From sequence record OP595145.1: 64,000 nt of DNA; one strand, written 5' to 3'. The position numbers and the translations under genes were made by a program. Below, in pieces: positions 19,626 to 39,610 of this stretch (its first letter is position 1; every line of letters begins with the position of its first letter). This stretch comes from Escherichia phage vB_EcoM_DE16. The notes below the pieces were generated by a model that saw only the letters and a list, made by a program, of their open reading frames with translations, was not told the origin of the DNA and did no database searches.

Positions 19626-19904
19626 TTAAAATGGTTCGTTAGTCTCCATCATATATTCTGCTTCTAGTTCTTCCATGTGCTTTCTAAATTGGAAAGCAAT
19701 TTCTGCTACAGTTACATTTAAATCTTTTTCAAAAACTTCTGTAGAGCCTTCGTAAAAACGAATACCGTCAATTAAAAGCCCTCCGTGGTAATCCCAATCA
19801 CTTTCACGAGAAAGCGGGTTAGGCTCTTCATAATAGTAATCCACCTCCACGACTAAGGCTTTCCCGTTACGAGTGGTGTATTCAAAATCAAAAGTGTTAA
19901 TCAT
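19626..19904 (-). CDS. hypothetical protein
   Basis: 92 aa; ATG overlaps upstream stop. Confidence 0.4.
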   Translation of the reverse strand: MINTFDFEYTTRNGKALVVEVDYYYEEPNPLSRESDWDYHGGLLIDGIRFYEGSTEVFEKDLNVTVAEIAFQFRKHMEELEAEYMMETNEPF

Positions 19905-20848
19905 TATAGCTCCTCAAATAAAAGTCTACGACGCTCATTCAACACATCAATGTGATAATGAGTCCTGACATACTTAGCTAATGCTAATCCTTTCTCCATG
20001 CAAACATCGGGAGCACTTAATAAGTATTCCGTAATATCTTTCCACTCGGAAGGTGTTTCAGCAAAGAATAACAGATCTTTAAACTCTTGTGTATGATAAT
20101 TCTCACGAGGAGAACAAATCAAAGGTAAACCCTTAGCACCTGCCTCAAGAATTTTAAGATTGCTTTTTGCATTATTAAACACGTTATCAATCAATGGCGC
20201 AAGACTGACTTGATGACCATCGTAAGATTCCATGTAGTTGGCATATGGTCTTACACCTTCATAAACACAAGTTGGTGCTACATTTTCTCTGATTACAGAC
20301 CATTCACGACTACTTAAAACTTCAGAATCCCTACGAAAACCACATATTGTAAGATCTTTACCAAAATCGGGCAAGATAGCCAAATCTTGTTTATGTGTTT
20401 CACTTCCAGCCCAGACTAATGGAGTTTTGGAGTAGCGATCACGGGTCAACACAAATTGACCTTCATCGTAAGGAAGTCCATTAGGGATTATGTGCACATT
20501 ATCATTGTATTGTGAAAGTTCAACTTGCAAGGCAGGTGTCGTAGTTGTAACAAGGTCACTGTGCTCTAAAAACCATTTTAAATGTTCACGAATACCTGAT
20601 TCAAAAATACCTTCTAACATGTGTCCTTTTGGAATAACTAAAGAGTCATCCAAATCCATAACCATTTTAAAGCCTAGGTTTTTAAGGGCTAAAAAGCCCT
20701 CTTTACCTTTTGTTGGCACTCCGTTAAAAACGAAAACGTTGTGTTTAGGTTGTGAAGAGAACTGCCTTGAGTAAGGCAGCACTACCCTATGGAAATCGCA
20801 GACACTATAATTGATTCCGTTACGATTGTCAAGAATTATTTGTCCCAT
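19904..20848 (-). CDS. glycosyltransferase-like protein (paralog 1 of a tandem pair)
   Basis: 314 aa; shares CDFHRV, NN-x-KSNLKILEAGAKG-x-P and VRTHY blocks with the next gene. Confidence 0.5.
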   Translation of the reverse strand: MGQIILDNRNGINYSVCDFHRVVLPYSRQFSSQPKHNVFVFNGVPTKGKEGFLALKNLGFKMVMDLDDSLVIPKGHMLEGIFESGIREHLKWFLEHSDLVTTTTPALQVELSQYNDNVHIIPNGLPYDEGQFVLTRDRYSKTPLVWAGSETHKQDLAILPDFGKDLTICGFRRDSEVLSSREWSVIRENVAPTCVYEGVRPYANYMESYDGHQVSLAPLIDNVFNNAKSNLKILEAGAKGLPLICSPRENYHTQEFKDLLFFAETPSEWKDITEYLLSAPDVCMEKGLALAKYVRTHYHIDVLNERRRLLFEEL

Positions 20849-20855
20849 ACTTCAC

Positions 20856-21803
20856 CTACAAACTTTCAATAACCTGGCGTCGCAATTCGTTTGCATCTGC
20901 CAGATTATAATGTGTTCGAACATGTTCAGCCAAGAACAAGCCACGATCTTCCCGATAGTTTGGATTGCGAAGAAGCTTAACAATTTCGTAATGCCATTCT
21001 GCTTTATTCTCTGCGTAAGCAACAGCACGAGCATCTACAGGGTTAAAATAAGGTAACACCTTAGAACAAACAATCGGAATACCTTTTGCCCCAGCTTCCA
21101 GGATTTTGAGATTACTTTTGCAATTATTAAAATCATTATCTACCAAAGGAGCTATAGCAATAGCATGACTTTCGTAAACACTCATGTAATTATCTAAATC
21201 TTTTACAGCAGCTTTATATTTAGCGTTTGGTAAATTTCTGCGAATCTTAATCCACTCTTGTCCCGTGATGCTCTGTGATGCTTCATATCCCGCAATAGTA
21301 AGAAGTTCATCATCGAAAGTATTAGAGACTAGTCGTAAGTCGGGTTCGTGACTAGCACCGCCAGCCCATACAACAGGGGTACCGGATGAACGATCATTTG
21401 ACAAAGTGAATTGTCCACTATCAAAAGGAAGTGCATTTCGGATCACAACAACATTCCTATTTAAGTGACGGATCTTATATGCCAAGTATTCCGTAGTCAC
21501 AATAACCACATCAGCAAGCTTAACCATAGCCACAATAGCATGAGTGTTTGACTCGTATAAACTTGCCAAATAATGCTCTGGATTAAGTTGGTAAAAATCA
21601 TCTAAGTCTACAACAATCTTAACACCTTGACGTTTCAAAGATAAAACGTATTCTGCACCTTTAGAGTGGATACGGTTAAACACAACAACATCTTTCTTAG
21701 GTTGAATATTACTGTTGTTAAATGGTATAACAATACGATGATAGTCACAACCGCTGTGAGGTTTTGCATCAATTTTTAGTTTAGACCATTTTTTATTTGA
21801 CAT
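20856..21803 (-). CDS. glycosyltransferase-like protein (paralog 2 of a tandem pair)
   Basis: 315 aa; colinear similarity to 19904..20848 over the whole length (CDYHRI, NNCKSNLKILEAGAKGIPIV, HVRTHY). Confidence 0.5.
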   Translation of the reverse strand: MSNKKWSKLKIDAKPHSGCDYHRIVIPFNNSNIQPKKDVVVFNRIHSKGAEYVLSLKRQGVKIVVDLDDFYQLNPEHYLASLYESNTHAIVAMVKLADVVIVTTEYLAYKIRHLNRNVVVIRNALPFDSGQFTLSNDRSSGTPVVWAGGASHEPDLRLVSNTFDDELLTIAGYEASQSITGQEWIKIRRNLPNAKYKAAVKDLDNYMSVYESHAIAIAPLVDNDFNNCKSNLKILEAGAKGIPIVCSKVLPYFNPVDARAVAYAENKAEWHYEIVKLLRNPNYREDRGLFLAEHVRTHYNLADANELRRQVIESL

Positions 21804-22476
21804 GTGCTAGTGCCTCCTCATAGGAAATTCGGATTTTCCCATTTTTAATATCCTCTAAAGATGCTTTATATTCTTCCCAGTTAATCCCAATAGCAGCTTC
21901 TTTCTCTTCTTTTGTCAGGTTAGCAAAAGGCATAGGATTGTTTCCAAAAACATCGTCTGGGTGGATATAAGCCATGATACGAAGTGGACAAGGTGTTGCC
22001 TGAATACCATGATTCAAACCAGCAGCTTGCAAACGGTGTCCCCATTCAGCATCTTCAAAACCATAACCGTGAGTGTAAGGACGGAAATAACCCATCTTCT
22101 CAACAACGGCACGAGAATACATTGCAAATTGACACATTGCAAGTTCCCAGAGAATAACTTCTCCTTTGCTTCCAACAACTTTATCTTTGAAATACTCCGG
22201 CATACCAAAGAAATCCCATCCTCCAGAAACAGCCTGATCTACAAAGTATGTTTCCCATCCTTCCATGACTGGGTAGCAATCATCGTCAAAAATAAACCAA
22301 TAATCATAACCTTCTTCATAAAACTGGTGCATAAGTTCATTCCTGGCATAAGCTACACCTTTACGATCTGGATCGTTGAATACTCGAAAATCTGCACGTG
22401 GATCTGTTACAAGGTAGTCTTTAAGTGGACGGACACCTACAGTGATAACACCCACTCCGATTTTAATATTTTCCAT
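21793..22476 (-). CDS. glycosyltransferase, GT-A fold-like (DxD)
   Basis: 227 aa; GVAYARNELM...WFIFDDDCYP resembles a nucleotide-sugar transferase DxD region. Confidence 0.45.
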   Translation of the reverse strand: MENIKIGVGVITVGVRPLKDYLVTDPRADFRVFNDPDRKGVAYARNELMHQFYEEGYDYWFIFDDDCYPVMEGWETYFVDQAVSGGWDFFGMPEYFKDKVVGSKGEVILWELAMCQFAMYSRAVVEKMGYFRPYTHGYGFEDAEWGHRLQAAGLNHGIQATPCPLRIMAYIHPDDVFGNNPMPFANLTKEEKEAAIGINWEEYKASLEDIKNGKIRISYEEALAHVK

Positions 22477-22484
22477 TATCTCTC

Positions 22485-23048
22485 CTAAATAGTTTTACTG
22501 TGATCGTGACAGTGTAATAAATGATGTATAGACCGTTGAGGATTTGTTTGACCTAATCTGTAAATGTGGAACAGATACATTCCCCGCATCAATCCTAACC
22601 TTTTTCCTTTTTCGTGTAAAGTGCGAGAGAAAATTAAGTCAAATTGAATAGATTTTTCTTCGAAAGGAATTTCATTCCATAGTGATTTCCTAAAAAGCAA
22701 AAAGAAACCTGCCAGAGGTGTTCCGAAAGGAACTTCTTCAACACTCACTTTATGATATTCTCTTGCAATCTTAGCATATTCTATATGGTTTAGAATATCT
22801 GGATCATCGTTAATTTGGTTAGAGAAAAGCTGATAACCACTGCCTAACCTGTTACAAGTTGCACCTATTACATCAAAAGGCGGGTTTGACATAACAAGCT
22901 CTTCAAGCATAGATGGTTGATCAGGTAGGAGGAACATTGTATCGGTATCTCTTAAACACACCCAACTATCATCTGGAAGAACGGCAATGGCTTCATTGAT
23001 AGCCTTGCCGATATTTCCTGTCAGATAGGGAGTAATATAATAAATCAT
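22485..23048 (-). CDS. putative glycosyltransferase-like protein (DxD-type)
   Basis: 187 aa; WVCLRDTDTMF D-x-D-like motif; weak assignment. Confidence 0.3.
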   Translation of the reverse strand: MIYYITPYLTGNIGKAINEAIAVLPDDSWVCLRDTDTMFLLPDQPSMLEELVMSNPPFDVIGATCNRLGSGYQLFSNQINDDPDILNHIEYAKIAREYHKVSVEEVPFGTPLAGFFLLFRKSLWNEIPFEEKSIQFDLIFSRTLHEKGKRLGLMRGMYLFHIYRLGQTNPQRSIHHLLHCHDHSKTI

Positions 23049-24370: not shown

Positions 24371-24973
24371 TTATGGACATTCATACCATTCTTTTTTACC
24401 ACCGAAGGCCATCACCACATCACAAATATCCAGACCAGCTTTACCTACACCATATGCTTTCAGCTTCCATTCTCCATCTTCACGAACCAAGGAAGCCACG
24501 TGGCAGATTGTGTTGCCAGCTACTTCAGGAGCCAGGAAGTCAAAATCCAGAATTTCCACATTGCGCTCGGAGTCGAAGATTTTAAGCATACCTTCAGAAG
24601 CATGACCAAAACGTTTCAGACCTGTATCATCATCAATGGTCAGAACAAAGGCAATCTCTTGTGCATCAGGAGAGATTTTAGCCAGAGTAATATCAATCTG
24701 CTCCATGCTGCCAGTTCCATCACGAACATCATCACCAGCGAAGGTAGAACGTTCAGGATCAAACTTGTTAGCATAGCAAACCAGATGACGTGCAGACAGC
24801 ATTTCAGGATTGCCAGCGGCATTGTGACGACAAACCAGTGCACTTACATCCAGGTCCAGTTTAGAATCAGATTTCCAAGAGAATTCCAGGCGCAGTTCTT
24901 TCAGAGCCGGAGCAACTTTCTTCAGGGAAATTTTTTCGCTAGAGCCTTTTTTCAGGGAAATTTTATCAGTCAT
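24371..24973 (-). CDS. terD: TerD-family protein
   Basis: 200 aa; N-terminal KISLKKGSSEKISLKK repeat, LDLDVSALV, GDDVRDGTGS, EIAFVLTIDD and GEWKLKAYGVG match the bacterial TerD pattern. Confidence 0.75.
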   Translation of the reverse strand: MTDKISLKKGSSEKISLKKVAPALKELRLEFSWKSDSKLDLDVSALVCRHNAAGNPEMLSARHLVCYANKFDPERSTFAGDDVRDGTGSMEQIDITLAKISPDAQEIAFVLTIDDDTGLKRFGHASEGMLKIFDSERNVEILDFDFLAPEVAGNTICHVASLVREDGEWKLKAYGVGKAGLDICDVVMAFGGKKEWYECP

Positions 24974-25258: not shown

Positions 25259-25487
25259 TTCTTCCTCCTAATGTTATCTCCGGTTTGTATATACGAAGAA
25301 TTATAGCATTTTCATTTTCTTTGTCAACCCATTCTTCATAATCGGGCCATACATGAATCTCTACTCTATTCGCAATATCTTCCATCCGCACAGTCCCAAT
25401 GAAATACTCTTTGAGACTGCGCATAATGAAAGCTTCTCTCTCGCGCCAATAATTTTCTACGACTTGAGAGGCAAGCTCGTCGATCAT
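25239..25487 (-). CDS. hypothetical protein
   Basis: 82 aa; ATGA overlap with upstream stop. Confidence 0.35.
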   Translation of the reverse strand: MIDELASQVVENYWREREAFIMRSLKEYFIGTVRMEDIANRVEIHVWPDYEEWVDKENENAIILRIYKPEITLGGRSVKLRN

Positions 25488-26278
25488 TTTTTAGCACCTA
25501 CTTTAACAACCCACTCTCCGAACTCTTCAGATAAGAGTTTGTCATAAAGCTCTGAATCTGTCAAGTCTAAATCTTTAATGCCAATAAAACCAACATTATC
25601 ATAAGCATTTGCCAGTTCTTTCAGGAAGCCAAACTTCTCATTACCAACGCCAACCATGAACCAATAGATAGGCTTATTCTTATTTTCTTCAATAAGACGA
25701 CGAACAGCACTAGGATCACCATTCTCACCATCTGTCTGGAAGAATACAACACCAGGGGTAACGTCAGCACCTGGTTCAGATACAGCTACAACCTTTTCAC
25801 GCTCTACAGACACTGTTTCAGTTTTACCAAGCAGACGATTAAAGAAGCCTTTCTTTGGAGCCTCCTCTTGTACCACTTGTTTAGTGGTAATATATTTGGT
25901 AACAGTGCCAAAATACTCATCGTAGATATCTGCCATTACAGGGGCGTAATTTGTTCCACCTCCGATACGAACATTACGCATACATTTACCAACATAGTCA
26001 TCGTAAACGTCTGCTGTTGCTGGAGTAAGCTCTTGAGAACTCGTATTGAAGGCCCACATGTCAATTTGTTCATTATCGTCGAACAGCATACCAAAAGGAA
26101 GCAGTTTACCTACAAAATCACTCACTACCCCACGAGCATATAGACTATGCATACTACCAGAAATATCTAGAGCACATGCTACACGAAGAACAATCTTACC
26201 TTCATTCAGGTTCTTATTCTTTTTCAGAGAGAAAGCAAGGTTTTCTTGACGTTTTTTCAGGCTGATTTTCTCGGACAT
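25484..26278 (-). CDS. von Willebrand factor A (vWA) domain protein with TerD-like N-terminal repeat (TerY-like)
   Basis: 264 aa; N-terminal MSEKISLKKRQENLAFSLKK; MIDAS motif ALDISGSM. Confidence 0.65.
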   Translation of the reverse strand: MSEKISLKKRQENLAFSLKKNKNLNEGKIVLRVACALDISGSMHSLYARGVVSDFVGKLLPFGMLFDDNEQIDMWAFNTSSQELTPATADVYDDYVGKCMRNVRIGGGTNYAPVMADIYDEYFGTVTKYITTKQVVQEEAPKKGFFNRLLGKTETVSVEREKVVAVSEPGADVTPGVVFFQTDGENGDPSAVRRLIEENKNKPIYWFMVGVGNEKFGFLKELANAYDNVGFIGIKDLDLTDSELYDKLLSEEFGEWVVKVGAKK

Positions 26279-27483: not shown

Positions 27484-27680
27484 TATTCCTCCTCCTCGTT
27501 GAAGTCGATATCTGCAAGTAGTTGGAATTTACGGAAGTTACGACAACCTTCATAAATATAACAATCACGACAAACTGCTAGAACACTTGGGGGATATATG
27601 CCTCCCATCGGTGCGAATCGTTTTTCGTCATCATAACGGACACCAATGTCTTCATCAATTATATAGATACGGATTCTCAT
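27483..27680 (-). CDS. hypothetical Cys-containing small protein
   Basis: 65 aa; ATGA overlap with the TelA-like gene. Confidence 0.35.
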   Translation of the reverse strand: MRIRIYIIDEDIGVRYDDEKRFAPMGGIYPPSVLAVCRDCYIYEGCRNFRKFQLLADIDFNEEEE

Positions 27681-28789
27681 TTACCAAGCCCTCGTTTCAC
27701 AGCAGCTACCATCCCGTCTTCCAGAGATTGAACTTCATTAATATAATCAACACGAGCAGCACGGGCTTCCGTATTGATGCGGTTAGTTTCTTCCAACATC
27801 TTAACCAAGTTTTCCTGATCGTGACGCAGAGTTTCAATATCCAACACTTGACGGTTAGCCAGTGCTGCTGCTTCGATCTGATTCTGTGTGGCAAGATCGC
27901 TACCCAGTTTAATTGCCAGGTTAAATTCGTCAAGAACGTTATTCTGCGTCTCTGCTGCTTTCATTTGACGTAAGCTCTCGATATACATGGAGAAGTTAGC
28001 AGAGTAAGCAGGAATAACATTATTTACTATGTTACGCGCAGATCGCATTAAGCTTGCAGAAACTTTTTGCATACCTTGTACACGCGGTCCCATTTGGACA
28101 CACAGTAGGCGCAATGCTTTTAAATCTGCAATACGAATCTCCAGAAGATCCAAAGTATCTCGGATCACTTGTCGCTGTTCTACTGCATCTTCTGGAAGAG
28201 CAGCCAAAGCTTGTTCTTCTTTTTCATAGGTTGCTGTTAGAAGCTGCATATCTCGGTTCAAACTTGCAGCATATTGTCCAATAGCTTGATGTAGCTTTTC
28301 AAGATATACCAAGGAATCTTCTTCTTTGCGAATATCCATTTGAAGGTTCTTTACCAACTCTTCAATACGGTTATTAACATTATCAAACTCCCCAAACAGG
28401 TCTTCTTTCATACCCATAACTTTTTTAATGAGTTTAGTAATACCCTTGCTTTGTTTAATAGAGTTTGGATCAAGTTGTTTTGCCTGTTTAATCAAAGCTG
28501 TGAGTCGTTCACTCATCTGATCACCTTGATTACTACGTTGATGTTTTAATACCTCGGCATTCAAGGAACGCAAGGTTGTTCCTGCCTCTGCCCCGATTTC
28601 TTCGATTTCTTGCCTGGTCATAGAAGGCAAAGCTGGTACTTCTTGCGGTGCGGCTGGTGCATAAACAGGACTGGCATCTAACACGCTTGGAGCGAATACA
28701 GATTTACTGGCATCTGTTGTTGCAGCAAATACGCTCATTTCAGGCTTCTTCTGACCACCAGTAGCTGCTTTTAAAAATGGACTTGTCAT
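27677..28789 (-). CDS. TelA/KlaA-like toxic-anion-resistance family protein (predicted all-helical)
   Basis: 370 aa, helical/coiled-coil composition, size and neighbourhood (TerD, vWA, TerC) fit TelA; no sharp motif. Confidence 0.45.
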   Translation of the reverse strand: MTSPFLKAATGGQKKPEMSVFAATTDASKSVFAPSVLDASPVYAPAAPQEVPALPSMTRQEIEEIGAEAGTTLRSLNAEVLKHQRSNQGDQMSERLTALIKQAKQLDPNSIKQSKGITKLIKKVMGMKEDLFGEFDNVNNRIEELVKNLQMDIRKEEDSLVYLEKLHQAIGQYAASLNRDMQLLTATYEKEEQALAALPEDAVEQRQVIRDTLDLLEIRIADLKALRLLCVQMGPRVQGMQKVSASLMRSARNIVNNVIPAYSANFSMYIESLRQMKAAETQNNVLDEFNLAIKLGSDLATQNQIEAAALANRQVLDIETLRHDQENLVKMLEETNRINTEARAARVDYINEVQSLEDGMVAAVKRGLGK

Positions 28790-30425: not shown

Positions 30426-30612
30426 ATTTGCTTTCCTCGTTTTGGCTATTAATACATCTGTGTTTGAAATCTCCAGAGAAGCAATAAAGTTGCTCTCCAT
30501 CTCGGTATAAACTCACTTTACTGCCGTTGATTATGCTTGTCAATACAAAAATTACAACAAACAACCCTATTGCAAAACAGATATTTTCAAACACAACCAA
30601 CAAGTATTTCAT
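30367..30612 (-). CDS. small membrane protein whose 3' end overlaps the lipoprotein gene
   Basis: 81 aa; N-terminal TM helix; ATGA coupling to upstream gene; 59-nt out-of-frame overlap with lipoprotein start. Confidence 0.35.
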   Translation of the reverse strand: MKYLLVVFENICFAIGLFVVIFVLTSIINGSKVSLYRDGEQLYCFSGDFKHRCINSQNEESKYEKTSPDFNWLYLFNSLRG

Positions 30613-30959
30613 TTTAAAAATACCTCATCATCAGTTTCATTATCCCAGAAGAACAAATCCCAACCACTTGGATCATTCCATTTGGCTGCTGGAGAAGTCC
30701 ATATTTGCTCAATATCAATATTCAAAACTTCACCGTTTCGTTTTGAAACAGCTTTAGTTAATTCCCAACGGGATACAGGCTCCACTTCCCCTGAACCACT
30801 CCCACAACAAGCTACAACATTAGGAGGCAAATTAATTGGATCTTTGGTCACAATCATAACGCTTACCCCAGGGTAAACTTTTGAAAGATAATCTGAAATA
30901 TAATCCACATCACCAGATAAATCCCAAACAAGTTCTTGAATTTCATCAAAATTATTCAT
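30609..30959 (-). CDS. hypothetical protein
   Basis: 116 aa acidic ORF. Confidence 0.4.
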   Translation of the reverse strand: MNNFDEIQELVWDLSGDVDYISDYLSKVYPGVSVMIVTKDPINLPPNVVACCGSGSGEVEPVSRWELTKAVSKRNGEVLNIDIEQIWTSPAAKWNDPSGWDLFFWDNETDDEVFLK

Positions 30960-31001
30960 AAGTCTCTCCTATAAAATAGCCTCCCGAAGGAGGCTCATCT
31001 A

Positions 31002-31976
31002 TTAAACAGCAGCTTCTTCTTTTTCAGGGAAGATAAAGCTTGCAATAACACCAAGAGCTAATGTGCCTAGAACAATCATCAGACTTACGTTAGGGGAAAT
31101 ATCATGCGGGAGGAATGACCACTTGGCATGAAGTGTTTCACCGAACGGGTGATACATAAGTTTAGCACCAACAAACACCAGAACCACAGCAACAGCTTTC
31201 TCTAAGTGAACCAGATATTTCACAGCTACACTTAACACAAAGAAAAGTGCACGTAAACCAAGAACAGCCATCAGCATTGCAGAATAAACTAGCAGAGGTT
31301 CTTGTGTCACCCCGATCACAGCCGGAACTGAATCAAAAGAGAAGACAATATCTGTAAGCTCAATAACAAACACACAAAGAAGAGCAGGAGTTGCATATTT
31401 AATACCATTCTTAATGGTAATGAACTTTTCACCATCTAGTGCATTGTGCACAGGCAGAACTTTACCTACTAAACGAACAGCCCAATGCTTAGAGTAATCA
31501 ATATCCTCTTCTTCGTCACCACCTTTGATGATAGCCACGGCAGACCAAGCTACAATCAAACCGAACAACACTTGGACCGACCAATGAAGGTTAAACAAAG
31601 CGGTCCCTGCTGCAACAAAAATACCTCGGAAGACAATGGCTCCTGCAATCCCCCAAAGTAAAATCTTATGTTGGAGATGTGTGCTCTTAATTCCAAAGCT
31701 TGCAAAAATTGCCATGAACACCATCAGGTTATCTACAGAAAGACTCTTTTCCAACACATAACCACTTAGGAAAAGCGCGGCAAACTCTTTACCATGTTCT
31801 ACCCAAATGAATGCGTAATATCCTAAAGCTAAAGCAATCCAAAAAACAGACCAAAGCAAAGCAGATTTAATTCCAATTTCTTTATTCTCTTTATGACCAA
31901 AGAAATCGATACCAATAGACAATGCCAAAATACCAACTAAAACAACTACATCAATAATTGGGAAACCGAGTTGCAT
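31002..31976 (-). CDS. terC: TerC-family integral membrane protein
   Basis: 324 aa multi-pass membrane protein; SLSVDNLMVFMAIF and FSFDSVPAVIGVTQEPLLVYSAMLMAVLGLRALFF match TerC signatures. Confidence 0.75.
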   Translation of the reverse strand: MQLGFPIIDVVVLVGILALSIGIDFFGHKENKEIGIKSALLWSVFWIALALGYYAFIWVEHGKEFAALFLSGYVLEKSLSVDNLMVFMAIFASFGIKSTHLQHKILLWGIAGAIVFRGIFVAAGTALFNLHWSVQVLFGLIVAWSAVAIIKGGDEEEDIDYSKHWAVRLVGKVLPVHNALDGEKFITIKNGIKYATPALLCVFVIELTDIVFSFDSVPAVIGVTQEPLLVYSAMLMAVLGLRALFFVLSVAVKYLVHLEKAVAVVLVFVGAKLMYHPFGETLHAKWSFLPHDISPNVSLMIVLGTLALGVIASFIFPEKEEAAV

Positions 31977-32055
31977 TCTTTTCTCCTCTCTTTGCGGGGA
32001 ACTATTCCCCGCTTCATGTGATATATCTTACTCTTTTTAAGAACTATGTCAACAC

Positions 32056-32277
32056 TTATTTTGTTGAATGAGAGGAAAAGATTCCTCGTAATACCGCCAG
32101 AATAAACGAAACACAAACCACGGTCCAGAAGGTTACTGGGACAGTGATATCTGCATGACCCATAACTTCAGCAACATAGTTGTAAGCCAGCAACAGTAAC
32201 CAAGCTGGAATCAAACTAAGCATAAAAGCAATAACAAAAAAGCTTACCACTGCAACAATACCTGCAAAAACACCCAT
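32056..32277 (-). CDS. small two-helix membrane protein
   Basis: 73 aa; two hydrophobic segments. Confidence 0.4.
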   Translation of the reverse strand: MGVFAGIVAVVSFFVIAFMLSLIPAWLLLLAYNYVAEVMGHADITVPVTFWTVVCVSFILAVLRGIFSSHSTK

Positions 32278-32289
32278 ACTAATCTCCTC

Positions 32290-32763
32290 TTAAAGTTTAT
32301 AAATAGTCACATCGTGACCTGTTTTTACTAAAGTTTCTTCAATCATCACTTGGATGATAGCCCAATTACCTCCGGCATGTCCCGCTCCAATCATAGGTAA
32401 ACCGATCTTACATTTTTGGTCACGGAGAAGCAAATCATTAGCCATAGCTATTAGTGCATCGTATAGGGCATCATAGTCCAACTGACGACCTTTAGCATTA
32501 TATCCGTAACGGTATTGCCCGTATAGATTATATACCAAAGGGTCTGATTGTTCGTCTGGCACCCCTAAACTAAAAGAACCTAACTTACTTTGATCACCAG
32601 CCATTGTGTCTAAATCTGCCGCATATGCATAAGGGAATGCTCGTTTAATTTGCGGAGCAATTCCTGCCCCCATATTACACATACAATTGCAACAATGAGC
32701 AATAACAGTTACTTCACCTGCTTTAGCGGCATCAATAAGATTACCTGTTTTCATTTTAAGCAT
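32290..32763 (-). CDS. macro-domain-like protein (ADP-ribose binding/processing fold)
   Basis: 157 aa; VIAHCCNCMCNMGAGIAPQI and IGLPMIGAGHAGGNW resemble the macro-domain N-x6-GGG and G-x-G-x-G loops. Confidence 0.5.
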   Translation of the reverse strand: MLKMKTGNLIDAAKAGEVTVIAHCCNCMCNMGAGIAPQIKRAFPYAYAADLDTMAGDQSKLGSFSLGVPDEQSDPLVYNLYGQYRYGYNAKGRQLDYDALYDALIAMANDLLLRDQKCKIGLPMIGAGHAGGNWAIIQVMIEETLVKTGHDVTIYKL

Positions 32764-32775
32764 TTTAGCTCCTTA

Positions 32776-33603
32776 TTACAGAATGTGTTGTTTTGTGTAA
32801 CGATCCAAGAATTCAAAGTTTTCAGCATACTTTGAAATTCGGTTGTAACCTTCTCCCAAACATCCGAAGAAAAGTTGCTCTACATAGTAGTGTGGCAATT
32901 GGCTAAGAATGATTTTGAAGTCTTCGTGATTTTGGCCCATAAGATACTTAATAGGACGAACAAGACACTGTGCATCACGTTCTTCATTAATCATTTTAAC
33001 AAACGCTTCTGGTGTATTAATATAATTAAAATTCAGTTTAGCTTCGGTATCTGCTTGATTACCTTCATATTTTGCAAAATACAAGAAGTAAACATCATTT
33101 TTAACTTGATTTTCATCAAGGATCTCAATCAGTTTGTCTTCATGAGTTCCAGTGATATTTACATCATCAATAAACACAAGCTTCTTATCACCCCAGAATT
33201 CTTTGTTGCAGTAGAATGTATCCCCATCGATAAGTTTCTTACGACTAGCTTTATCCAAGAAACCATAATCGTTGATATAGCTAACTTTACGATGAATAAT
33301 ATCCAGTTCTGCTGAACGACCTTGATCATATTGTGATTGCAACATATTAAAGTAATTAATAAAATGATCTGTCATCATTGTTGCAGCATTATGCACATGG
33401 TTGTAAGGAGAAGGAATGATAACAAATTGTTCCCCAATATGTTTCATTGCCACTTGAGCAAAAAACTGAAGTGCCAATTCTTTACCCATACGACGCGCAG
33501 CCTGGTTACTACCAAATTTCAATTTTGAATAATCTTGGATATCAAAAGTAGCAGTTTCCAGGTCATCAAATTTATTTGCAAAAATTTGAGTTTGATTACG
33601 CAT
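32776..33603 (-). CDS. type I phosphoribosyltransferase-like protein
   Basis: 275 aa; PRPP-loop-like KLVFIDDVNITGTH. Confidence 0.5.
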   Translation of the reverse strand: MRNQTQIFANKFDDLETATFDIQDYSKLKFGSNQAARRMGKELALQFFAQVAMKHIGEQFVIIPSPYNHVHNAATMMTDHFINYFNMLQSQYDQGRSAELDIIHRKVSYINDYGFLDKASRKKLIDGDTFYCNKEFWGDKKLVFIDDVNITGTHEDKLIEILDENQVKNDVYFLYFAKYEGNQADTEAKLNFNYINTPEAFVKMINEERDAQCLVRPIKYLMGQNHEDFKIILSQLPHYYVEQLFFGCLGEGYNRISKYAENFEFLDRYTKQHIL

Positions 33604-34252
33604 TTACAATTTCTCCTCTTTTAAGTTTCTCTAGTAAGTCGTTAGGGTTCTTAATATGACAGAAGTTAATCCCTATGTCAACACATTTACCATCAAATTC
33701 TTCGCTGTCCCCAACATGTAAAATCTCTTCAGCCTTCAAAGGAATGCTTGAATATGTGGCGGTCCTAACAAAGAATCTAGGATCTGGTTTACACAACAGA
33801 TGTTCGTCTGAAAAATGCATAAATTCAAAACAATTCCAACTGTCGAACATACAAGCACGACGCAAAATATCCCCAGATATAAAATTAGTATTGCTTTTAA
33901 TACTAAGATCATATTTACCAGACAAGTATAGCAAACAAACTGGCAAATCTAAAGCAATATGTGGAGGAAATTTAAGAAACCATTGCTCACACTCAAAACG
34001 CATTTGTGCAGATTCTACAGGGGTTAAACCTATCTTTCTTCCCAACATATTCCATGCATATGCTACACCTTCTGCACACCCATTTAGTGCAGCATTATCC
34101 ATAATTTCTTTGGCATCTTTATATGCTTCTTTTGCCGCACGTTCAGACATTCTACCATATGTAGCAATAGTGTGCGTACGTGCATCTGCATAGTTTTGAT
34201 TGGCAGAAATAAGAGTATTCCATACATCAAAAGAGATATGTTTTATTGTCAT
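33596..34252 (-). CDS. HAD-superfamily hydrolase (phosphatase)-like protein
   Basis: Track ORF trimmed to ATG after GGTGGG; motif I-like FDVWNTL, conserved Lys (CKPDPRFF), motif IV-like HVGDSEEFD. Confidence 0.5.
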   Translation of the reverse strand: MTIKHISFDVWNTLISANQNYADARTHTIATYGRMSERAAKEAYKDAKEIMDNAALNGCAEGVAYAWNMLGRKIGLTPVESAQMRFECEQWFLKFPPHIALDLPVCLLYLSGKYDLSIKSNTNFISGDILRRACMFDSWNCFEFMHFSDEHLLCKPDPRFFVRTATYSSIPLKAEEILHVGDSEEFDGKCVDIGINFCHIKNPNDLLEKLKRGEIVNA

Positions 34253-34253
34253 A

Positions 34254-34859
34254 CTAGGCCCACCATGCATCAAGATTTAAGTTACTGTCTACCACAACTT
34301 GTTCTATGTGGTAGCCTTTTATCTGTATGCCACTGTTCAAGAGCATATCATATGCTTCATTGAAACGCAACTTATCTTCTGCGGAATATAAGCGAGCATT
34401 ATAAAATCGGTAATCAATTTCTTCAGCATTAGAAGAAATACGGAAGAAGTTTGTTTCTACTTCGGGATCACTTGCTGAAGTCTTAATGTGAACTTCTCCA
34501 TAATTTTCTTTACTTAGATCCATGAAAAGAACACAGGCAACATGTTTAAACATTCGTTCCAGTTTGTAACGAACAACATTGAAACCTGCATTCTCAAGTT
34601 TTTCTACACACTGCAACATTAAAGTAGTGTCGAGATCGCTTTGATACTTTGTTAACATACGATCACGTTGAGACTTTGTATCCCGATGTAAATCAATTGT
34701 TGTGCATTTTGCACCAATAATCTTAGCTGCTTTCATCAACTCTTCAGAACTAACGTTAGATAAAGTAAGATGAAAATGGGCTTTCCACACTTTTTTAGCA
34801 GGGACACCAAAAGATTTATCCCCACTATTCGGCATGTTGACTACTACACTATGTTGCAT
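34254..34859 (-). CDS. hypothetical protein (one H-x-T-x motif, weak 2H-phosphoesterase-like hint)
   Basis: 201 aa; HFHLTL motif; second motif not clear. Confidence 0.35.
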   Translation of the reverse strand: MQHSVVVNMPNSGDKSFGVPAKKVWKAHFHLTLSNVSSEELMKAAKIIGAKCTTIDLHRDTKSQRDRMLTKYQSDLDTTLMLQCVEKLENAGFNVVRYKLERMFKHVACVLFMDLSKENYGEVHIKTSASDPEVETNFFRISSNAEEIDYRFYNARLYSAEDKLRFNEAYDMLLNSGIQIKGYHIEQVVVDSNLNLDAWWA

Positions 34860-34874
34860 TACTTATCTCCTCAC

Positions 34875-35066
34875 TTAAAATGGAAGTCTTTGAAGTTCAT
34901 CTCCTCCGATATCAAGTAATTTAGCAACATCTCGATCAGAAAGCAACTCTTTTCTTTGTAAAATATCCACAAGGGTTGCAAGAATGTCCTTAACGTCCCG
35001 ATCACTGTTCTTCAAAAGTTCTCCTGCCGTCCCTACTTTATCTCCTACAGCAAAATATGTAACCAT
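34875..35066 (-). CDS. hypothetical small protein
   Basis: Track ORF trimmed to ATG after AGGAGG; 63 aa. Confidence 0.3.
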   Translation of the reverse strand: MVTYFAVGDKVGTAGELLKNSDRDVKDILATLVDILQRKELLSDRDVAKLLDIGGDELQRLPF

Positions 35067-35079
35067 GAAACCTCCTAAG

Positions 35080-35550
35080 TTAATCTGATTGCCAACCACT
35101 TGCCGTTTTGGTCCATAATCTTTGATTATCTGACCCTCTGAAAGGTTTTGTAGTTGGATTGTTTATTTCATACTTTCCGTCTACAATAATGTCAACAAGA
35201 TTTTTAATATATAAAGGCACTTCCTCAAAAGTATATCCTGTATACACCATTATATCTTTGCTTGACCCATAAACGTCTCTAACCTTTTCTATAAGGCTTT
35301 TAACATTGTAAATATTCTGCGGATCTAATGGTTCTCCTCCTAAAATTGTTAAACCTTTTACAAACGGTCTTGACAAATCTTTTAAAACTTGCTCTACATT
35401 TTCGTGAGTAAATGGTTTCCCGTAAGAATAAGACCAGGCTTTCTGGTTAAAACAGCCACGACAACCGTGGCTACAACCACTAACCCAGAGGGAGCACCTA
35501 ACTCCCTCACCATTAATAAGATCTACAGGTTCATATCCTGCAAAATTCAA
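35080..35550 (-). CDS. nrdG: anaerobic ribonucleoside-triphosphate reductase activating protein (radical SAM)
   Basis: 156 aa; CxxxCxxC cluster (GCSHGCRGC); colinear with T4 NrdG including C-terminal RGSDNQRLW. Confidence 0.85.
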   Translation of the reverse strand: MNFAGYEPVDLINGEGVRCSLWVSGCSHGCRGCFNQKAWSYSYGKPFTHENVEQVLKDLSRPFVKGLTILGGEPLDPQNIYNVKSLIEKVRDVYGSSKDIMVYTGYTFEEVPLYIKNLVDIIVDGKYEINNPTTKPFRGSDNQRLWTKTASGWQSD

Positions 35551-37361
35551 AGATGTTTCTCCCTTTGCAAAACTTCCTGCATTTTACCTTTGTTATAAGG
35601 CCGTGAATTAGGGGCAGAAAGATACCCTGATACACGTCTAACTACAGAAATAGTTTCTTCTTCATGGTTGCCACAATCAGGGCACTCAAACCCTTTAGCC
35701 GTTGCCTTAAATTCTCCATGAAAACCACACTTAAAGCATTGATCCACGGGCTGATTAATACCAAAATAGTGAATATGTTCATAAGCGTAGTCTACTAAAG
35801 TCTCCAAAGCTTCTAAGTTATTCTTTAAGTTTGGTGTTTCGACATAACTTATGTTACCACCATTGCTAATCTGTGCAAAACCTGCTTCATAATCCCATTT
35901 TTCAAAAGGATTTGTTACCAACCATACAGGTTGATGAAAAGAGTTGGTAAGATAGTCTCTTTCTACCAAACCTGGGTATTTTTCATTTAAAGCTGTTGCA
36001 AACTTATAGCACAAGGATTCTGCTGGAGTTCCATAGAGACTAAACGCCAGTTTAGATCGTTCTTTAAACACAGCACACACATCTTTCATATGTTGCAGAA
36101 TGTTTTTACCAAGTTCCTTTTTATCTTTTTCTTCTGGATAAAGGATTTCCAAAGCTTCAGCAAGACCTACATAACCAATACTAATAGAAGCATAACCATC
36201 TTCAAACAAAACACCAATTTCATCGTTGGCATTTAAACGCGCTAAAGCCCCTTCCATGAAAAGAATAGGGTTTTCAGATGCTTTGGTATGTCTAATACGG
36301 TTTACACGTAGCATGTGAGCATCATAGGCTATCTCCATATGCTTATTAAGAAGATCGGTGAAAGATTCTCCTTTGCTTCTCGCTTCCGCAGCAATCAGAG
36401 GCAAGTTGATAGAAACTACTCCAAGGTTGAATCGTCCATCATATTTTTCTCCTTGTTCTGTGGCATAGTACGACAAAAAGGAACGACAGCCCATACTCGT
36501 AACGGTACCATCTGCTGATCCCGTAACTTCTTTGTTCAAAGGAACAGAAATAAAATCTGGATAAATACGATCAGCACAACATGCCAAAGCTTGTTGCTTA
36601 AGGTCATAGTTAGGATCACTAGGTTTCATGTTAACACCTTCTTGTAAAAAGAAAATAACTTTAGGGAATACAGGCGTTACATGATCTTTGCCTAGACCAT
36701 TACTATGCACTTTAAGATAGTTAGCTGTGATCATTCTGCCAAAAACAGAGGTATCCAGACCCATACTGATTGTAATAAAAGGAGATTGTCCATTTACACT
36801 CATTAAAGTATTAACCTGATACAAGAGAGTTTGCATAGCATCATATACATCTTGTTCAGTCATTTCTAGGGCTTCTTTCCTTGCATAACAACCGTAGCGA
36901 CGTTTGGTTATCTCCATGTTTTTAAGGAAACTAGCTTCAACATAAGGACTAAGACCTTTATCAATGTGCGCACACGTCTGACCGCCATACTGACTGGAGG
37001 CAACAGCTTGGATGATTTGAGTTAGCACTGTAGTAGCTACTCCAATAGATTTTGGTTTTTCTATCTGTGCAGCACCGATCTTAAAACCATTCTCTAACAT
37101 ATCTTGATAATTAACAAGACAACAGTTTGTAAGAGGAGAGAGTAGATAATCCAAGTCGTGAATATGTCCAAAACCTTCTGTATGCCATTCTGACAAGTTT
37201 TTTGGCAGTATCTGTGTCATTGCCATATGTTTGCTTAAAATCCCCGCCAAGAGATCCCTGTGCGTGTTAACGAGGTGGGAAGGTTTGTTTGCATTCTCTC
37301 TAGTGTATGTTTCTGAAGTGCGATCTAAAAAAGAAAAAACATCTTGGTACAAATCTTTCAT
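35547..37361 (-). CDS. nrdD: anaerobic ribonucleoside-triphosphate reductase (glycyl radical enzyme)
   Basis: 604 aa; N-terminal ENANKPSHLVNTHRDLLAGILSKH close to T4 NrdD; C-terminal Zn ribbon CFKCG...CPDCG and glycyl-radical motif RRVSGY. Confidence 0.9.
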   Translation of the reverse strand: MKDLYQDVFSFLDRTSETYTRENANKPSHLVNTHRDLLAGILSKHMAMTQILPKNLSEWHTEGFGHIHDLDYLLSPLTNCCLVNYQDMLENGFKIGAAQIEKPKSIGVATTVLTQIIQAVASSQYGGQTCAHIDKGLSPYVEASFLKNMEITKRRYGCYARKEALEMTEQDVYDAMQTLLYQVNTLMSVNGQSPFITISMGLDTSVFGRMITANYLKVHSNGLGKDHVTPVFPKVIFFLQEGVNMKPSDPNYDLKQQALACCADRIYPDFISVPLNKEVTGSADGTVTSMGCRSFLSYYATEQGEKYDGRFNLGVVSINLPLIAAEARSKGESFTDLLNKHMEIAYDAHMLRVNRIRHTKASENPILFMEGALARLNANDEIGVLFEDGYASISIGYVGLAEALEILYPEEKDKKELGKNILQHMKDVCAVFKERSKLAFSLYGTPAESLCYKFATALNEKYPGLVERDYLTNSFHQPVWLVTNPFEKWDYEAGFAQISNGGNISYVETPNLKNNLEALETLVDYAYEHIHYFGINQPVDQCFKCGFHGEFKATAKGFECPDCGNHEEETISVVRRVSGYLSAPNSRPYNKGKMQEVLQREKHL

Positions 37362-37424
37362 TATTAATCCTTATTTTGTGAGTAGAACTATTATTCTACC
37401 TCTTTCAACCGAAAAAAGCTTTGA

Positions 37425-37455
37425 GGGAAATCAAAAAAGGCGCAAAGTGCGCCTT
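37425..37455 (-). terminator. rho-independent terminator after the 449-aa gene
   Basis: Minus-strand AAGGCGC-ACTTT-GCGCCTT hairpin followed by TTTTTTGATTT. Confidence 0.65.
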
Positions 37456-37461
37456 TAAGTT

Positions 37462-38811
37462 TTATCGTTTGGAGAGGAATTGTCTTCCCATGATCTTACC
37501 ATTCTTTACAGCGGTCCCATCATGTCCATTATAATCCCAAGTTCCGTCGATATTACGCAAGAAACTATCACGAACAGTGTAGGCTTTACCGTTCTCTACT
37601 TTACTTTCTTCCACAATGATCGCCATAACAAGCTTATTTTCAATTTCGGTAGTAACCGATTCTTTGATACCCTCTGTAACTTCACGATCATATTGGATAT
37701 AAACTCGCTCCTCAGTCACTTGCACGTCTACCACATTTTTAAATGTGTAGGTCTGTTGTGTAGTGTAGAGGACACGAACGACACTCTTCTTACCTACTGG
37801 CGGCTTCTGACGACGTTTGCGGTAACGTGGAGACGGGTTAAGTTTAATATAGCCTACAATGTCTGATCCATCTCCAGAGTGGCTCCAATAAAGTGTCTCT
37901 GCCAACAAACCTTTTCCTTGGTCCCCATTTCGAAAAAGAACATCAACAGGACCATCACAAGGGCGTTTACCTCCGATGTGGGCTTGGTATTTTGCTGTTC
38001 TTGGGAGAACAAAATATTCTTCAATCTGCCATTCACTATCGTATTTCTCCCACTCAAAGTGGTTGGCTTTGCATACTTCTAAAACACCATTTTTGTAACG
38101 GACTTGAACAAAGTCCTCACAAGGTTGAATACCTGTATTAGGAATATAGGTAGGCTCTGTGTCTTCTGGTTCAAAAGTCTCTTTTTGTTGTTCCACATCT
38201 TCCACTTTTCTTACATGCTTAGTATAAAACATATCTTTAAACTCCTGTGCTTCAACCTCAACTGCAAATTCATGTTCTCTGACAGCCGGAGGCACAAGGC
38301 TTCCACACTCAAGATGTAGAGCATCCAGACCTGCCATTTTATCGTAAAAGATAACTTTTCGATACTTCTTACCGTCTTCTGGAATAGCAGGGTCTACTCG
38401 TTTAAGACGGGAAGCATCGCTTTTAGTCCAAAAACTCTTCCCTGTTGTATTATTGAAAGTAGTAATCATTTCTCCAATTTCTTCTTCAGAAAGGTTACTA
38501 GTGTCTGTGTAAACATCTTCAATTTTTAGCATTTTAGTTTTCTTAAAAATTAAATCTAGCATTGCATCTCCTGTAAAACGTAGTTCATTATCTCCTACTG
38601 TCGGCTCTCCAGTAAATTCATCGGTCCCGACTGTGTGACAGATGTATGGAAAATTTGTGCAACCGTGTAAAAGAGCATATTGTCCTGTAAGTTTAGGATC
38701 TGTCTCTTTAGTCCAACCATATGCAATCTCAATAGCTTTGCAAAGCTTATCGAACAAGCCCCGATTGTTTGCCGCTGTTACCAAATCTTGCTTATGTGCA
38801 TATACATTCAT
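37462..38811 (-). CDS. hypothetical protein (449 aa)
   Basis: Long ORF with ATG start and own terminator; no motif recognised. Confidence 0.45.
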   Translation of the reverse strand: MNVYAHKQDLVTAANNRGLFDKLCKAIEIAYGWTKETDPKLTGQYALLHGCTNFPYICHTVGTDEFTGEPTVGDNELRFTGDAMLDLIFKKTKMLKIEDVYTDTSNLSEEEIGEMITTFNNTTGKSFWTKSDASRLKRVDPAIPEDGKKYRKVIFYDKMAGLDALHLECGSLVPPAVREHEFAVEVEAQEFKDMFYTKHVRKVEDVEQQKETFEPEDTEPTYIPNTGIQPCEDFVQVRYKNGVLEVCKANHFEWEKYDSEWQIEEYFVLPRTAKYQAHIGGKRPCDGPVDVLFRNGDQGKGLLAETLYWSHSGDGSDIVGYIKLNPSPRYRKRRQKPPVGKKSVVRVLYTTQQTYTFKNVVDVQVTEERVYIQYDREVTEGIKESVTTEIENKLVMAIIVEESKVENGKAYTVRDSFLRNIDGTWDYNGHDGTAVKNGKIMGRQFLSKR

Positions 38812-39362
38812 AATAACCCTCCTCGTTTTATTGCAATAGATGCCCTAGGCTCTGCGATACCAGTGGCGTATAAATATGGATGACCTTGTGGAGAAGTTCT
38901 CATCCCAAACGAACCTAATTCTAACCCATACATATCTTCCACGTCAAGACCAATATCTGTCTCTATGATTTGAGTTTGAACTTTGTAATACGTCCAAAAG
39001 AAATAGCGCATAGTTTCGGCATATTCTTTGACGGACGCTCCTGGATAAAACTCAATAATTTCCAACTTTAAGAAAATGTTAAAATGAGCATCATCCAATT
39101 CTTCTTCTGTTCGGTAGCAAGGTGTTAGAGCCATATAAGGATGATCTGTTGAAAATTCAAACCCATCTTTCTCCATCTGGAGGAAAGACTGCTCTGCACT
39201 GGCTACGTAGAACTTACCATTAGGATGCCCCAAGGGGCGATCCTCTTTACCTTCTGGTAATGTATATGCAAGGATATCCGCATCTACAAGATAAGGGACT
39301 TCCAACATCTCCGCAAATCGCCCGTAGTAATCAATAGCTTGAGCAATAACAGCTACGTTCAT
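38808..39362 (-). CDS. hypothetical protein
   Basis: 184 aa; ATGA overlap with downstream gene. Confidence 0.4.
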   Translation of the reverse strand: MNVAVIAQAIDYYGRFAEMLEVPYLVDADILAYTLPEGKEDRPLGHPNGKFYVASAEQSFLQMEKDGFEFSTDHPYMALTPCYRTEEELDDAHFNIFLKLEIIEFYPGASVKEYAETMRYFFWTYYKVQTQIIETDIGLDVEDMYGLELGSFGMRTSPQGHPYLYATGIAEPRASIAIKRGGLL

Positions 39363-39610
39363 GATCTTCCTCCTGTGCGGAAAGCGCGTTTAGTAATGTT
39401 GGACATAATGATTAAATCTTGTAAAGTCATATCTGGGAACTGTTGTTCTAAAACTCCCTCAACAGCACCTATAATATCTGACAATTCAACAAGTTGCATT
39501 ATTTTGCAATCCTGTTCAACAGCATCAAAAAGTTCTTCTACTTCCTCTTTAATCTTTTCTATGCTGCCATAAGGTTGTTTCTTAATGTCTGTTATGTGAT
39601 ACCCCGCCAT
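39359..39610 (-). CDS. hypothetical protein, possibly MazG-like helical NTP pyrophosphohydrolase
   Basis: 83 aa; EEVEELFDAVEQD...ELSDIIGAVEGVL pattern. Confidence 0.3.
   Translation of the reverse strand: MAGYHITDIKKQPYGSIEKIKEEVEELFDAVEQDCKIMQLVELSDIIGAVEGVLEQQFPDMTLQDLIIMSNITKRAFRTGGRS

Follow-up and report, generated by a model that had tools for sequence, protein, structure and literature searches.

A HAD-PRTase_3 gene pair linked to Ter genes, and its macrodomain neighbour, in Escherichia phage vB_EcoM_DE16

Do three neighbouring phage genes that encode a macrodomain protein, a phosphoribosyltransferase (PRTase) and a protein of the HAD superfamily work together on one nucleotide-like molecule, or do they belong to different processes? 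The question is raised by a stretch of 64,000 nucleotides from Escherichia phage vB_EcoM_DE16 (sequence record OP595145.1), hereafter called the window, in which these genes occupy positions 32,290 to 34,252. A first-pass annotation, made from the letters and their open reading frames (ORFs), had described them as three adjacent co-directional genes that together could recycle ADP-ribose, rebuild NAD-like molecules or make a modified nucleotide, independently of the Ter genes found in the same stretch. The ORFs match the reported positions exactly, and all three lie on the minus strand. However, we favour another reading of them, to which we give a probability of roughly 60%: one co-directional early/middle block contains two functionally separate things, a HAD-PRTase_3 pair and a macrodomain.

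By its relatives, the source phage is a phAPEC8-like E. coli phage of the genus Phapecoctavirus, subfamily Stephanstirmvirinae. Over the 4 kb that surround the three genes, identity is 99% to Klebsiella phage ZCKP1 and to the Escherichia phages nieznany and ESCO13, and ~98.7% to ESCO5. In public records, the macrodomain gene is labelled "phosphatase", the PRTase gene "putative orotate phosphoribosyltransferase" or hypothetical, and the HAD gene "hydrolase".

The HAD-PRTase_3 pair and its Ter neighbours

The evidence that the PRTase and the HAD protein belong together comes from a wide range of genomes. A total of 48 loci (L001-L048) were collected from annotated phage genomes, metagenomic contigs, IMG/VR, plasmids and GTDB genomes, and were divided into 24 lineages at a PRTase identity of at least 80%; neighbouring genes were clustered for 47 of the loci. 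Neighbours were called by iterated hidden Markov models (HMMs), single-sequence tblastn having missed divergent TerD, TelA and TerC genes. With the iterated HMMs, a homologous HAD gene is found directly upstream of the PRTase gene in every one of the 27 first-set loci and in 20 of the 21 from genome contigs, and the neighbour clustering places HAD beside PRTase in 46 of 47 loci (24 lineages). The paired loci include phages of E. coli, Xanthomonas, Rhizobium and Brevundimonas as well as uncultured jumbo phages; beyond named phages, they occur in Rhizobiaceae, Bacteroidales, a Peribacteria metagenome-assembled genome and Pedococcus. Among 1.84 billion representative proteins, a profile search identified 843 members of the PRTase_3 family. 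Among the best 149 matches, 15 are proteins of 450-560 aa that Pfam resolves into an N-terminal HAD domain and a C-terminal PRTase_3 domain, and one PRTase-HAD-PRTase protein is found among the same 149. Because these fusions keep the order of the gene pair, they provide strong evidence that the HAD protein and the PRTase act in the same pathway; by the locus counts, the two form an invariant pair, with HAD as the obligate partner.

The PRTase was recognized in the first-pass annotation by its 5-phosphoribosyl pyrophosphate (PRPP) loop, and the assignment held under profile search: the protein matches Pfam PF15610 at E=2.2e-41 and 142.5 bits (cut-off 28.7) over 256 of the 264 profile positions. 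The loop itself is present at residues 142-154 (L142-VFIDDVNITGTH-154). Its letters LVFIDDVNITGTH are conserved, and residues D146, D147, T151, G152, T153 and H154 are invariant across 31 homologues. Structure prediction, one of the checks proposed with the annotation, gave an AlphaFold2 (AF2) model with a predicted local distance difference test (pLDDT) score of 92.9 and the alpha/beta core fold of type I PRTases. The top Foldseek matches of this model are 6-oxopurine PRTases (HGPRTs) and the ComF protein of H. pylori (7p0h), with E-values of ~1e-5 and a probability of 1.00; their template modelling (TM) scores are only 0.36-0.47, because of an extra, family-specific C-terminal helical domain (~residues 186-275). 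Single-sequence and profile searches found no PDB relative of the PRTase by sequence. The window PRTase is a type I, ComF/HGPRT-like enzyme and not a TIM-barrel enzyme of the NadV/Nampt type.

The partner protein scores 19.5 bits against the Pfam Hydrolase profile, under a cut-off that is passed by its homologues and by the fusion proteins. It matches PHROG 14393 at E=9e-121 and shows weak matches to DREG-2/CTE7 in NCBIfam. HAD motifs I-IV are all present (D9, S120/N121, K155 and G181-D182...D187) and are invariant in 9 diverse homologues, as are W11, N12 and T13. Motif I reads D9-V-W11-N-T-L, which means that its Asp+2 position is occupied by Trp. In nearly all HAD phosphatases, the Asp+2 of motif I serves as the general acid/base. 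Trp stands in this position in 9 of 9 diverse HAD homologues and in 13 of 13 fusion-size HAD-PRTase proteins. The D-x-W-x-T clade covers both stand-alone and fused forms (the window HAD, loci L002-L011 and proteins P0294-P0423), and the sole PDB relative of the HAD protein by sequence, 2om6, has FDVWNTL too. The invariant Trp-for-Asp in this clade of PRTase_3 partners may be a new detail. Phosphoryl chemistry by the HAD protein is still likely, since its motif IV (G-D-x4-D) retains the Mg-binding acidic residues. The first-pass annotation was right, with the four motifs invariant, to place the protein in the HAD superfamily; its "phosphatase" label, given that Asp+2 is always Trp, is an unproven assumption.

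Besides HAD, an unbiased clustering across the 24 lineages yielded only four recurrent neighbour families, and Pfam identifies all four as Ter: TerC/DUF475 in 10 of 24 lineages (within 6 kb), TerD in 8, and TelA and vWA-TerF in 6 each. In the window, TerD, vWA-TerF, TelA and TerC are encoded on the same strand at most 9 kb from the pair. On the chromosome of the actinobacterium Pedococcus, they form a single array, TerD-x-TerD-TerC-vWA_TerF-TerD-TerD-HAD-PRTase_3-PRTase_3. Sequenced phage records contain TerD in 148 cases and PRTase_3 in 156, with nearly coinciding counts per host genus (TerD/PRTase_3: Escherichia 105/104, Brevundimonas 7/7, Caulobacter 4/4), and Xanthomonas phage XaC1 has both. 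In XaC1 and in the Brevundimonas and Caulobacter jumbo phages, the two genes lie far apart in the genome. With Ter genes as the sole recurrent neighbours and nearly the same host-genus spread for TerD and PRTase_3, the independence from the Ter genes that had been proposed for this unit is not supported for the HAD-PRTase pair.

Anantharaman, Iyer and Aravind reportedly described, in 2012, a Ter-linked biosynthetic module with a predicted role in the synthesis of a nucleoside-like metabolite. The window shares with it a PRTase_3 gene, an adjacent HAD gene and a TerD/TerC/TelA/vWA-TerF neighbourhood. Unlike the full bacterial module, the window form is minimal, with HAD and one PRTase: no Pfam match to an ATP-grasp amidoligase or a TIM-barrel C-C lyase was found in the 20 neighbouring window proteins scanned, a set that does not include every small ORF. 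Also unlike the bacterial module, the window phage has lineage-specific add-ons, namely orf201, the macrodomain and the small protein tm73. A passage of Iyer et al. 2021 (PMC7824862) places a phage version in Acinetobacter phage ME3 "and certain other related smaller tailed phages". Judged by these likenesses in sequence and gene content, the HAD-PRTase pair represents the Ter-associated module for a "nucleoside-like metabolite", already published in kind. The earlier suggestion that the three genes make a modified nucleotide agrees with this published prediction as far as the PRTase and the HAD protein are concerned; the macrodomain is not in the unit. PADLOC gave no defence-system match for the PRTase, HAD, TerD, vWA, TelA or TerC proteins.

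From these data we infer the following scheme for the pair. The type I PRTase would move 5-phosphoribose from PRPP to an acceptor, either base-like or another nucleophile and probably a host metabolite, with acceptor specificity conferred by the family-specific C-terminal helical domain. The HAD protein would then process the phosphoribosyl product, most simply by removing its 5'-phosphate to leave a riboside. At the membrane, this riboside may work together with TerD, TerC, TelA and vWA-TerF of the phage, for instance to bring about superinfection exclusion or stress or ion control during infection.

A bolder version of this scheme seems doubtful to us, namely that the two enzymes suffice to make the postulated "Ter metabolite", a ribosylated small molecule, from PRPP and a common host metabolite, with the Trp-containing HAD protein perhaps going beyond simple dephosphorylation. 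In such a route, the HAD protein might form a long-lived phospho-enzyme or transfer its phosphoryl group, and in Stephanstirmvirinae the macrodomain and orf201 might act on the molecule as well. If it were true, the cassette would make the chemistry that underlies Ter-type resistance to stress, phages and colicins directly accessible to experiment. The ter clusters confer resistance to tellurite, colicins and phages; pathogenic E. coli and Klebsiella often carry them. To our knowledge, their predicted "nucleoside-like metabolite" has never been identified, and ter function has been unclear for decades. Phages carry the biosynthetic part in its smallest form, as two genes with coupled translation that in some organisms are fused, and this would make the pair convenient for finding the acceptor and the product.

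Other surroundings of the pair were also observed. In two Ter-less jumbo-phage loci, those of Xanthomonas phage XaC1 (L003, 3518-8527) and L009 (2443-8825), the pair adjoins genes for a DUF2828/DUF7788 protein and a T4 Rnl1-type RNA ligase, which hints at an alternative context of the RNA-repair type. Rhizobiaceae and a single lineage of uncultured phages have a gene for a ClpP-like protease directly downstream of the PRTase gene (L040, at 8804-9583, and L019, L020, L031, L032 and L038). Genes close to the pair on a Sinorhizobium garamanticum plasmid (L010) encode a UbiA prenyltransferase, a GMC oxidoreductase, an NAD-dependent epimerase and an SMR transporter. Such a context resembles PRPP chemistry of the decaprenyl-phosphoribose/arabinose type, perhaps by coincidence, the gene table of the plasmid being incomplete. 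In a tblastn search of 72,556 plasmids, the PRTase matched only sequences from Rhizobium, Sinorhizobium and Hymenobacter, and none on enterobacterial ter plasmids; the idea that it was taken from the classical ter island of the host was rejected on this ground.

The macrodomain

The macro-like assignment in the first-pass annotation was likewise upheld by profile search. The protein narrowly exceeds the cut-off of Pfam PF01661 (E=7.9e-5, 23 bits; cut-off 22), matches PHROG 335 at E=1e-55 and is 37% identical to the T4 tk.4 product. Its matches in PDB, with E-values from 1e-12 to 1e-6, include SCO6735 (5e3b, 1.1e-12), BT1257 (Bt_1257, 2fg1), the DarG macrodomain (5m31) and TARG1 (4j5r). The DarG models of PADLOC (1.6e-10) and NCBIfam (4.5e-9) are matched in their macro part only. 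The loops, which had been given as N-x6-GAG and G-x-G-x-G, were approximately right: the sequence has N26-x5-G32-A-G34, equal to the canonical N-x6-[GA]-G-[VLI] as N26-x6-A33-G34-I35, and a second loop, G126-A-G128-H-A-G131-G132.

An active-site comparison, also proposed with the first-pass annotation, points to SCO6735 and away from the TARG1/DarG lysine. N26 and Q83 are the equivalents of N27 and Q85 in SCO6735 and are invariant in 20 family members. In SCO6735, Asn27 and Gln85 are essential for the removal of ADP-ribose from thymidine in DNA, and Lys34 matters for DNA binding (PMC9411070). The window macrodomain shares with SCO6735, besides the Asn and the Gln, matching loop lengths and the P-x-I-G-x-G-x-x-G-G loop; it differs in having Cys24 for Val25 and Ala33 for Lys34. 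Unlike DarG, TARG1 and AdfM, it has no catalytic Lys (K84 in TARG1, K80 in DarG). Gln83 is found at the position of this Lys, and Ala at the position of TARG1 D125 ("GAGHAGG"), which does not agree with a mechanism of the TARG1/DarG type. Further differences from DarG concern the whole protein: the C-terminal DarT-binding domain is missing, the match covers positions 2-147 of the 338-position model with 36 bits against a cut-off of 250, and, unlike the gene of the DarG antitoxin, the macrodomain gene has no adjacent darT and is flanked by the genes for the PRTase and a 73-aa membrane protein. In being a stand-alone "orphan", it is similar to the phage anti-DarT factors. One of these is AdfM, a macrodomain anti-DarT2 factor of chimalliviruses (PMC13309987); another is the NADAR protein AdfN, an anti-DarT1 factor encoded by the related phages Bas60-62 (PMC11825919).

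On the strength of these residues, the macrodomain is most likely an ADP-ribosyl glycohydrolase of the SCO6735/DarG type, which would strip ADP-ribose from DNA thymidine or from proteins. Reversal of ADP-ribosylation, possibly of that made by DarT2, is the best-supported guess, in line with one suggestion of the first-pass annotation, and an anti-DarTG-type role is plausible; the protein would be a candidate counter-defence against DarT2-like ADP-ribosyltransferases. The same family includes Tk.4 of T4 (PHROG 335), annotated as "phosphatase" or "macro domain protein", for which no experimental function was found in the literature. Its "phosphatase" label reflects an annotation of the ADP-ribose-1''-phosphatase type and not an assay. 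If reversal of DarT-type DNA ADP-ribosylation by a macrodomain of the Tk.4 family were shown, it would explain a very common gene (~3,000 phages).

A total of 2,983 phage records encode homologues of the macrodomain, among them T4 tk.4 and those of PAK_P1-like Pseudomonas phages, ~20 times as many as the 156 records of the PRTase. Of the 24 lineages, only 3, each of them belonging to Stephanstirmvirinae, have the macrodomain gene next to the pair. The claim that the trio is a single unit fails on these two counts, and the macrodomain gene stands beside the pair by synteny specific to the lineage and not through a conserved functional link. In an unrelated uncultured phage (L021), a macrodomain homologue lies 7 kb from the pair. 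The macrodomain of Justusliebigvirus phage JohannJBalmer (Bas62; L002, 6833-7567) has an N-terminal extension of ~95 aa without a Pfam match, and its ORF overlaps the end of the PRTase gene. Two records named as Campylobacter phages, B15 and C3 (MG065650.1 and MG065656.1), are near-identical to E. coli Stephanstirmvirinae in these genes, their PRTases being 98.9% and 65% identical to that of the window, respectively; their host labels may be wrong or come from contamination. Neither the Ter-linked pair nor the macrodomain is a surprise to specialists, as both are foreseeable from published comparative genomics.

Competing explanations

The original idea, that the macrodomain, the PRTase and the HAD protein form one pathway which recycles ADP-ribose or rebuilds NAD-like molecules against NAD-depleting immunity, appears highly improbable. 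It is consistent with the adjacency, common direction and tight spacing of the three genes, with a gene for an NMN (nicotinamide mononucleotide)-adenylyltransferase/Nudix protein ~250 bp downstream of the pair in a Rhizobium phage, and with the existence of phage NAD reconstitution pathways (NARPs; PMC13464706). However, no macrodomain gene stands beside the pair in 21 of 24 lineages, the macrodomain is far more widespread than the PRTase, and the proteins conserved alongside the pair are those of Ter, not enzymes of NAD metabolism. The known pathways are also built from other enzymes: NARP1-3 consist of ADP-ribose recycling by Adps and Namat, of Nampt with Nmnat, and of PnuC with NadR (PMC13464706). 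They resemble the window genes in being phage-encoded small-molecule pathways with ribose-phosphate/PRPP chemistry, but none of the three window proteins matches a NARP enzyme family in Pfam or NCBIfam. NARP3 was rejected as a match, PnuC and NadR being unrelated. With a PRTase that is not Nampt-like and NARP enzymes that differ, nothing in the enzymes themselves supports the rebuilding of NAD or the recycling of ADP-ribose. A more limited link between the three proteins, restricted to Stephanstirmvirinae, is improbable to a lesser degree. It would have the macrodomain recruited to the HAD-PRTase pathway, in a three-gene version or a four-gene version with orf201, where it might bind the ribosyl or phosphoribosyl product, hydrolyse this product or take off a ribose-linked group. 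The order orf201/HAD/PRTase/macro/tm73/TerC is indeed kept across genera at 63-79% PRTase identity (L002, L012-L016), the genes share one block between terminator-like hairpins, and the macrodomain homologue of L021 is found at some distance from the pair in an unrelated phage. The conserved order weighs little, because synteny in these related phages extends over the entire region. Moreover, the macrodomain keeps active-site residues of the ADP-ribose type, its family is present in thousands of phages that do not have the pair, and a macrodomain gene is missing from the bacterial Ter operons that contain the pair.

It is also unlikely, if somewhat less so than either of these, that the HAD-PRTase pair is independent of Ter and constitutes a stand-alone device for small-molecule ribosylation or for the nucleotide pool, which could detoxify or inactivate a metabolite of the host or of a competitor, drain PRPP or make an inhibitor of host immune signalling. 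Its attraction is that Ter genes are not found near the pair in XaC1, in the Rhizobium and Brevundimonas phages, in several uncultured phages and on Rhizobiaceae replicons, and that Rhizobium phages are missing among the host genera listed for TerD. Transfer from PRPP followed by dephosphorylation is, in addition, known for acceptors other than nucleobases in antibiotic and cell-wall pathways, namely in the ribosylation of neamine by BtrL/BtrP and in the synthesis of decaprenyl-phosphate ribose by Rv3806c/Rv3807c. As in the phage pair, a PRPP-using transferase is obligately coupled there to a partner of the phosphohydrolase type, resulting in a riboside of a non-canonical acceptor. The likeness is an analogy only: the protein families are unrelated, and the phosphatases of these systems are not D-x-W-x-T HADs. 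Against such independence, Ter genes are the sole recurrent neighbours across phyla and in phages, and the Brevundimonas and Caulobacter phages and XaC1 have TerD elsewhere in their genomes.

The preferred division into a Ter-associated pair and a separate macrodomain has its own difficulties, and the following points weigh against it. In 9 lineages of phages, as in Rhizobiaceae, no Ter gene was located at 8 kb or less from the pair, and the Rhizobium phages, which contribute 11 PRTase records, do not figure among the host genera listed for TerD; Ter genes are thus not required for the pair to occur. No known substrate was found in the literature for any PRTase_3 enzyme or D-x-W-x-T HAD, so that the product of the pair stays hypothetical. 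Without the Asp+2 general acid/base, to judge from motif I, the HAD protein may be no simple phosphomonoesterase. On the side of the macrodomain, Ala33 is found where SCO6735 has Lys34, the residue that matters for DNA binding. Finally, the order macro-PRTase-HAD is kept between Phapecoctavirus and Justusliebigvirus, at 65% identity of the PRTases and 49% of the macrodomains, which keeps a local functional link between the macrodomain and the pair conceivable to some degree.

Layout of the gene block

The features of the region are listed in Table 1. The two hairpins are likely the 5' and 3' boundaries of a transcription block, which likely reads NrdD-NrdG-orf74-orf201-HAD-PRTase-macro-tm73-TerC. 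The HAD and PRTase genes overlap by 8 nt, and the Shine-Dalgarno sequence of the PRTase gene, AAGAGGAG, lies inside the HAD gene. The gap of 12 nt between the PRTase and macrodomain genes contains AAGGAG.

Table 1. Genes and candidate regulatory elements in and around the HAD-PRTase-macro block (window coordinates)
Feature	Coordinates	Strand	Description
Macrodomain gene	32290..32763	-	157 aa; T4 Tk.4 / PHROG 335 family, ALC1-like class, SCO6735-like subclass
PRTase_3 gene	32776..33603	-	275 aa; PF15610, "ComF-like"
HAD gene	33596..34252	-	218 aa; HAD subfamily IA, C1-cap
orf201	34254..34859	-	201 aa; 1 nt between its end and the HAD start codon
tm73	32056..32277	-	73 aa, hydrophobic, probably membrane; between the macrodomain gene and TerC; PHROG 16065 6e-43
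TerC-family integral membrane protein	31002..31976	-	Pfam PF03741 3e-40
TelA-family protein	27677..28789	-	Pfam PF05816 3e-33
vWA-TerF-like protein	25484..26278	-	Pfam PF10138 8e-38
TerD-domain protein	24371..24973	-	Pfam PF02342 3e-28
Intrinsic-terminator-like hairpin, strong	37436..37456	-	9 bp, 5 GC, T-run; upstream of nrdD
Intrinsic-terminator-like hairpin	30978..30995	-	just past TerC
Sigma-70-like promoter match	32025..32052	-	TTGACA-16-TAAGAT, in the 79-nt gap before TerC (consensus match only)

The gap before TerC (31977-32055, minus strand) also contains a short GC hairpin, GCGGGGAA-TAG-TTCCCCGC. At the E-value threshold used, an Rfam search over 30500-37600 returned three chance-level matches only, and a known RNA in the block, such as a yybP-ykoY riboswitch before TerC, was ruled out, as no Rfam family was matched. 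The tm73 gene is kept across Stephanstirmvirinae, with conserved synteny in L002 and L012-L016.

The orf201 product has no Pfam or NCBIfam match. It matches the PADLOC "AbiEi" models PDLC02277/02279 at ~5e-13 over residues 29-200. Its homologues form 34 clusters and are confined to Phapecoctavirus-like phages. Three strands carry invariant patterns, HxHxT (28-32), RxKxE (97-101) and ExHxK (122-126), and the AF2 model (pLDDT 83) consists of tandem ferredoxin-like halves with no convincing neighbour in PDB. The idea that it is a 2H-phosphoesterase was rejected. It is possibly a lineage-specific accessory gene.

Upstream of nrdD (37462-39610, minus strand), three proteins of 449, 184 and 83 aa are encoded. 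The 449-aa protein has no Pfam match and is labelled "ribonucleotide reductase" in other records. The 184-aa protein, also without a Pfam match, carries a histidyl-/aspartyl-/glutamyl-tRNA-synthetase-like label, and the 83-aa protein shows a weak PRA-PH/MazG-like match (E=0.008). Downstream of the Ter cluster (19904-23048, minus strand), there are four consecutive genes that are labelled as glycosyltransferases in the related phage ESCO5.

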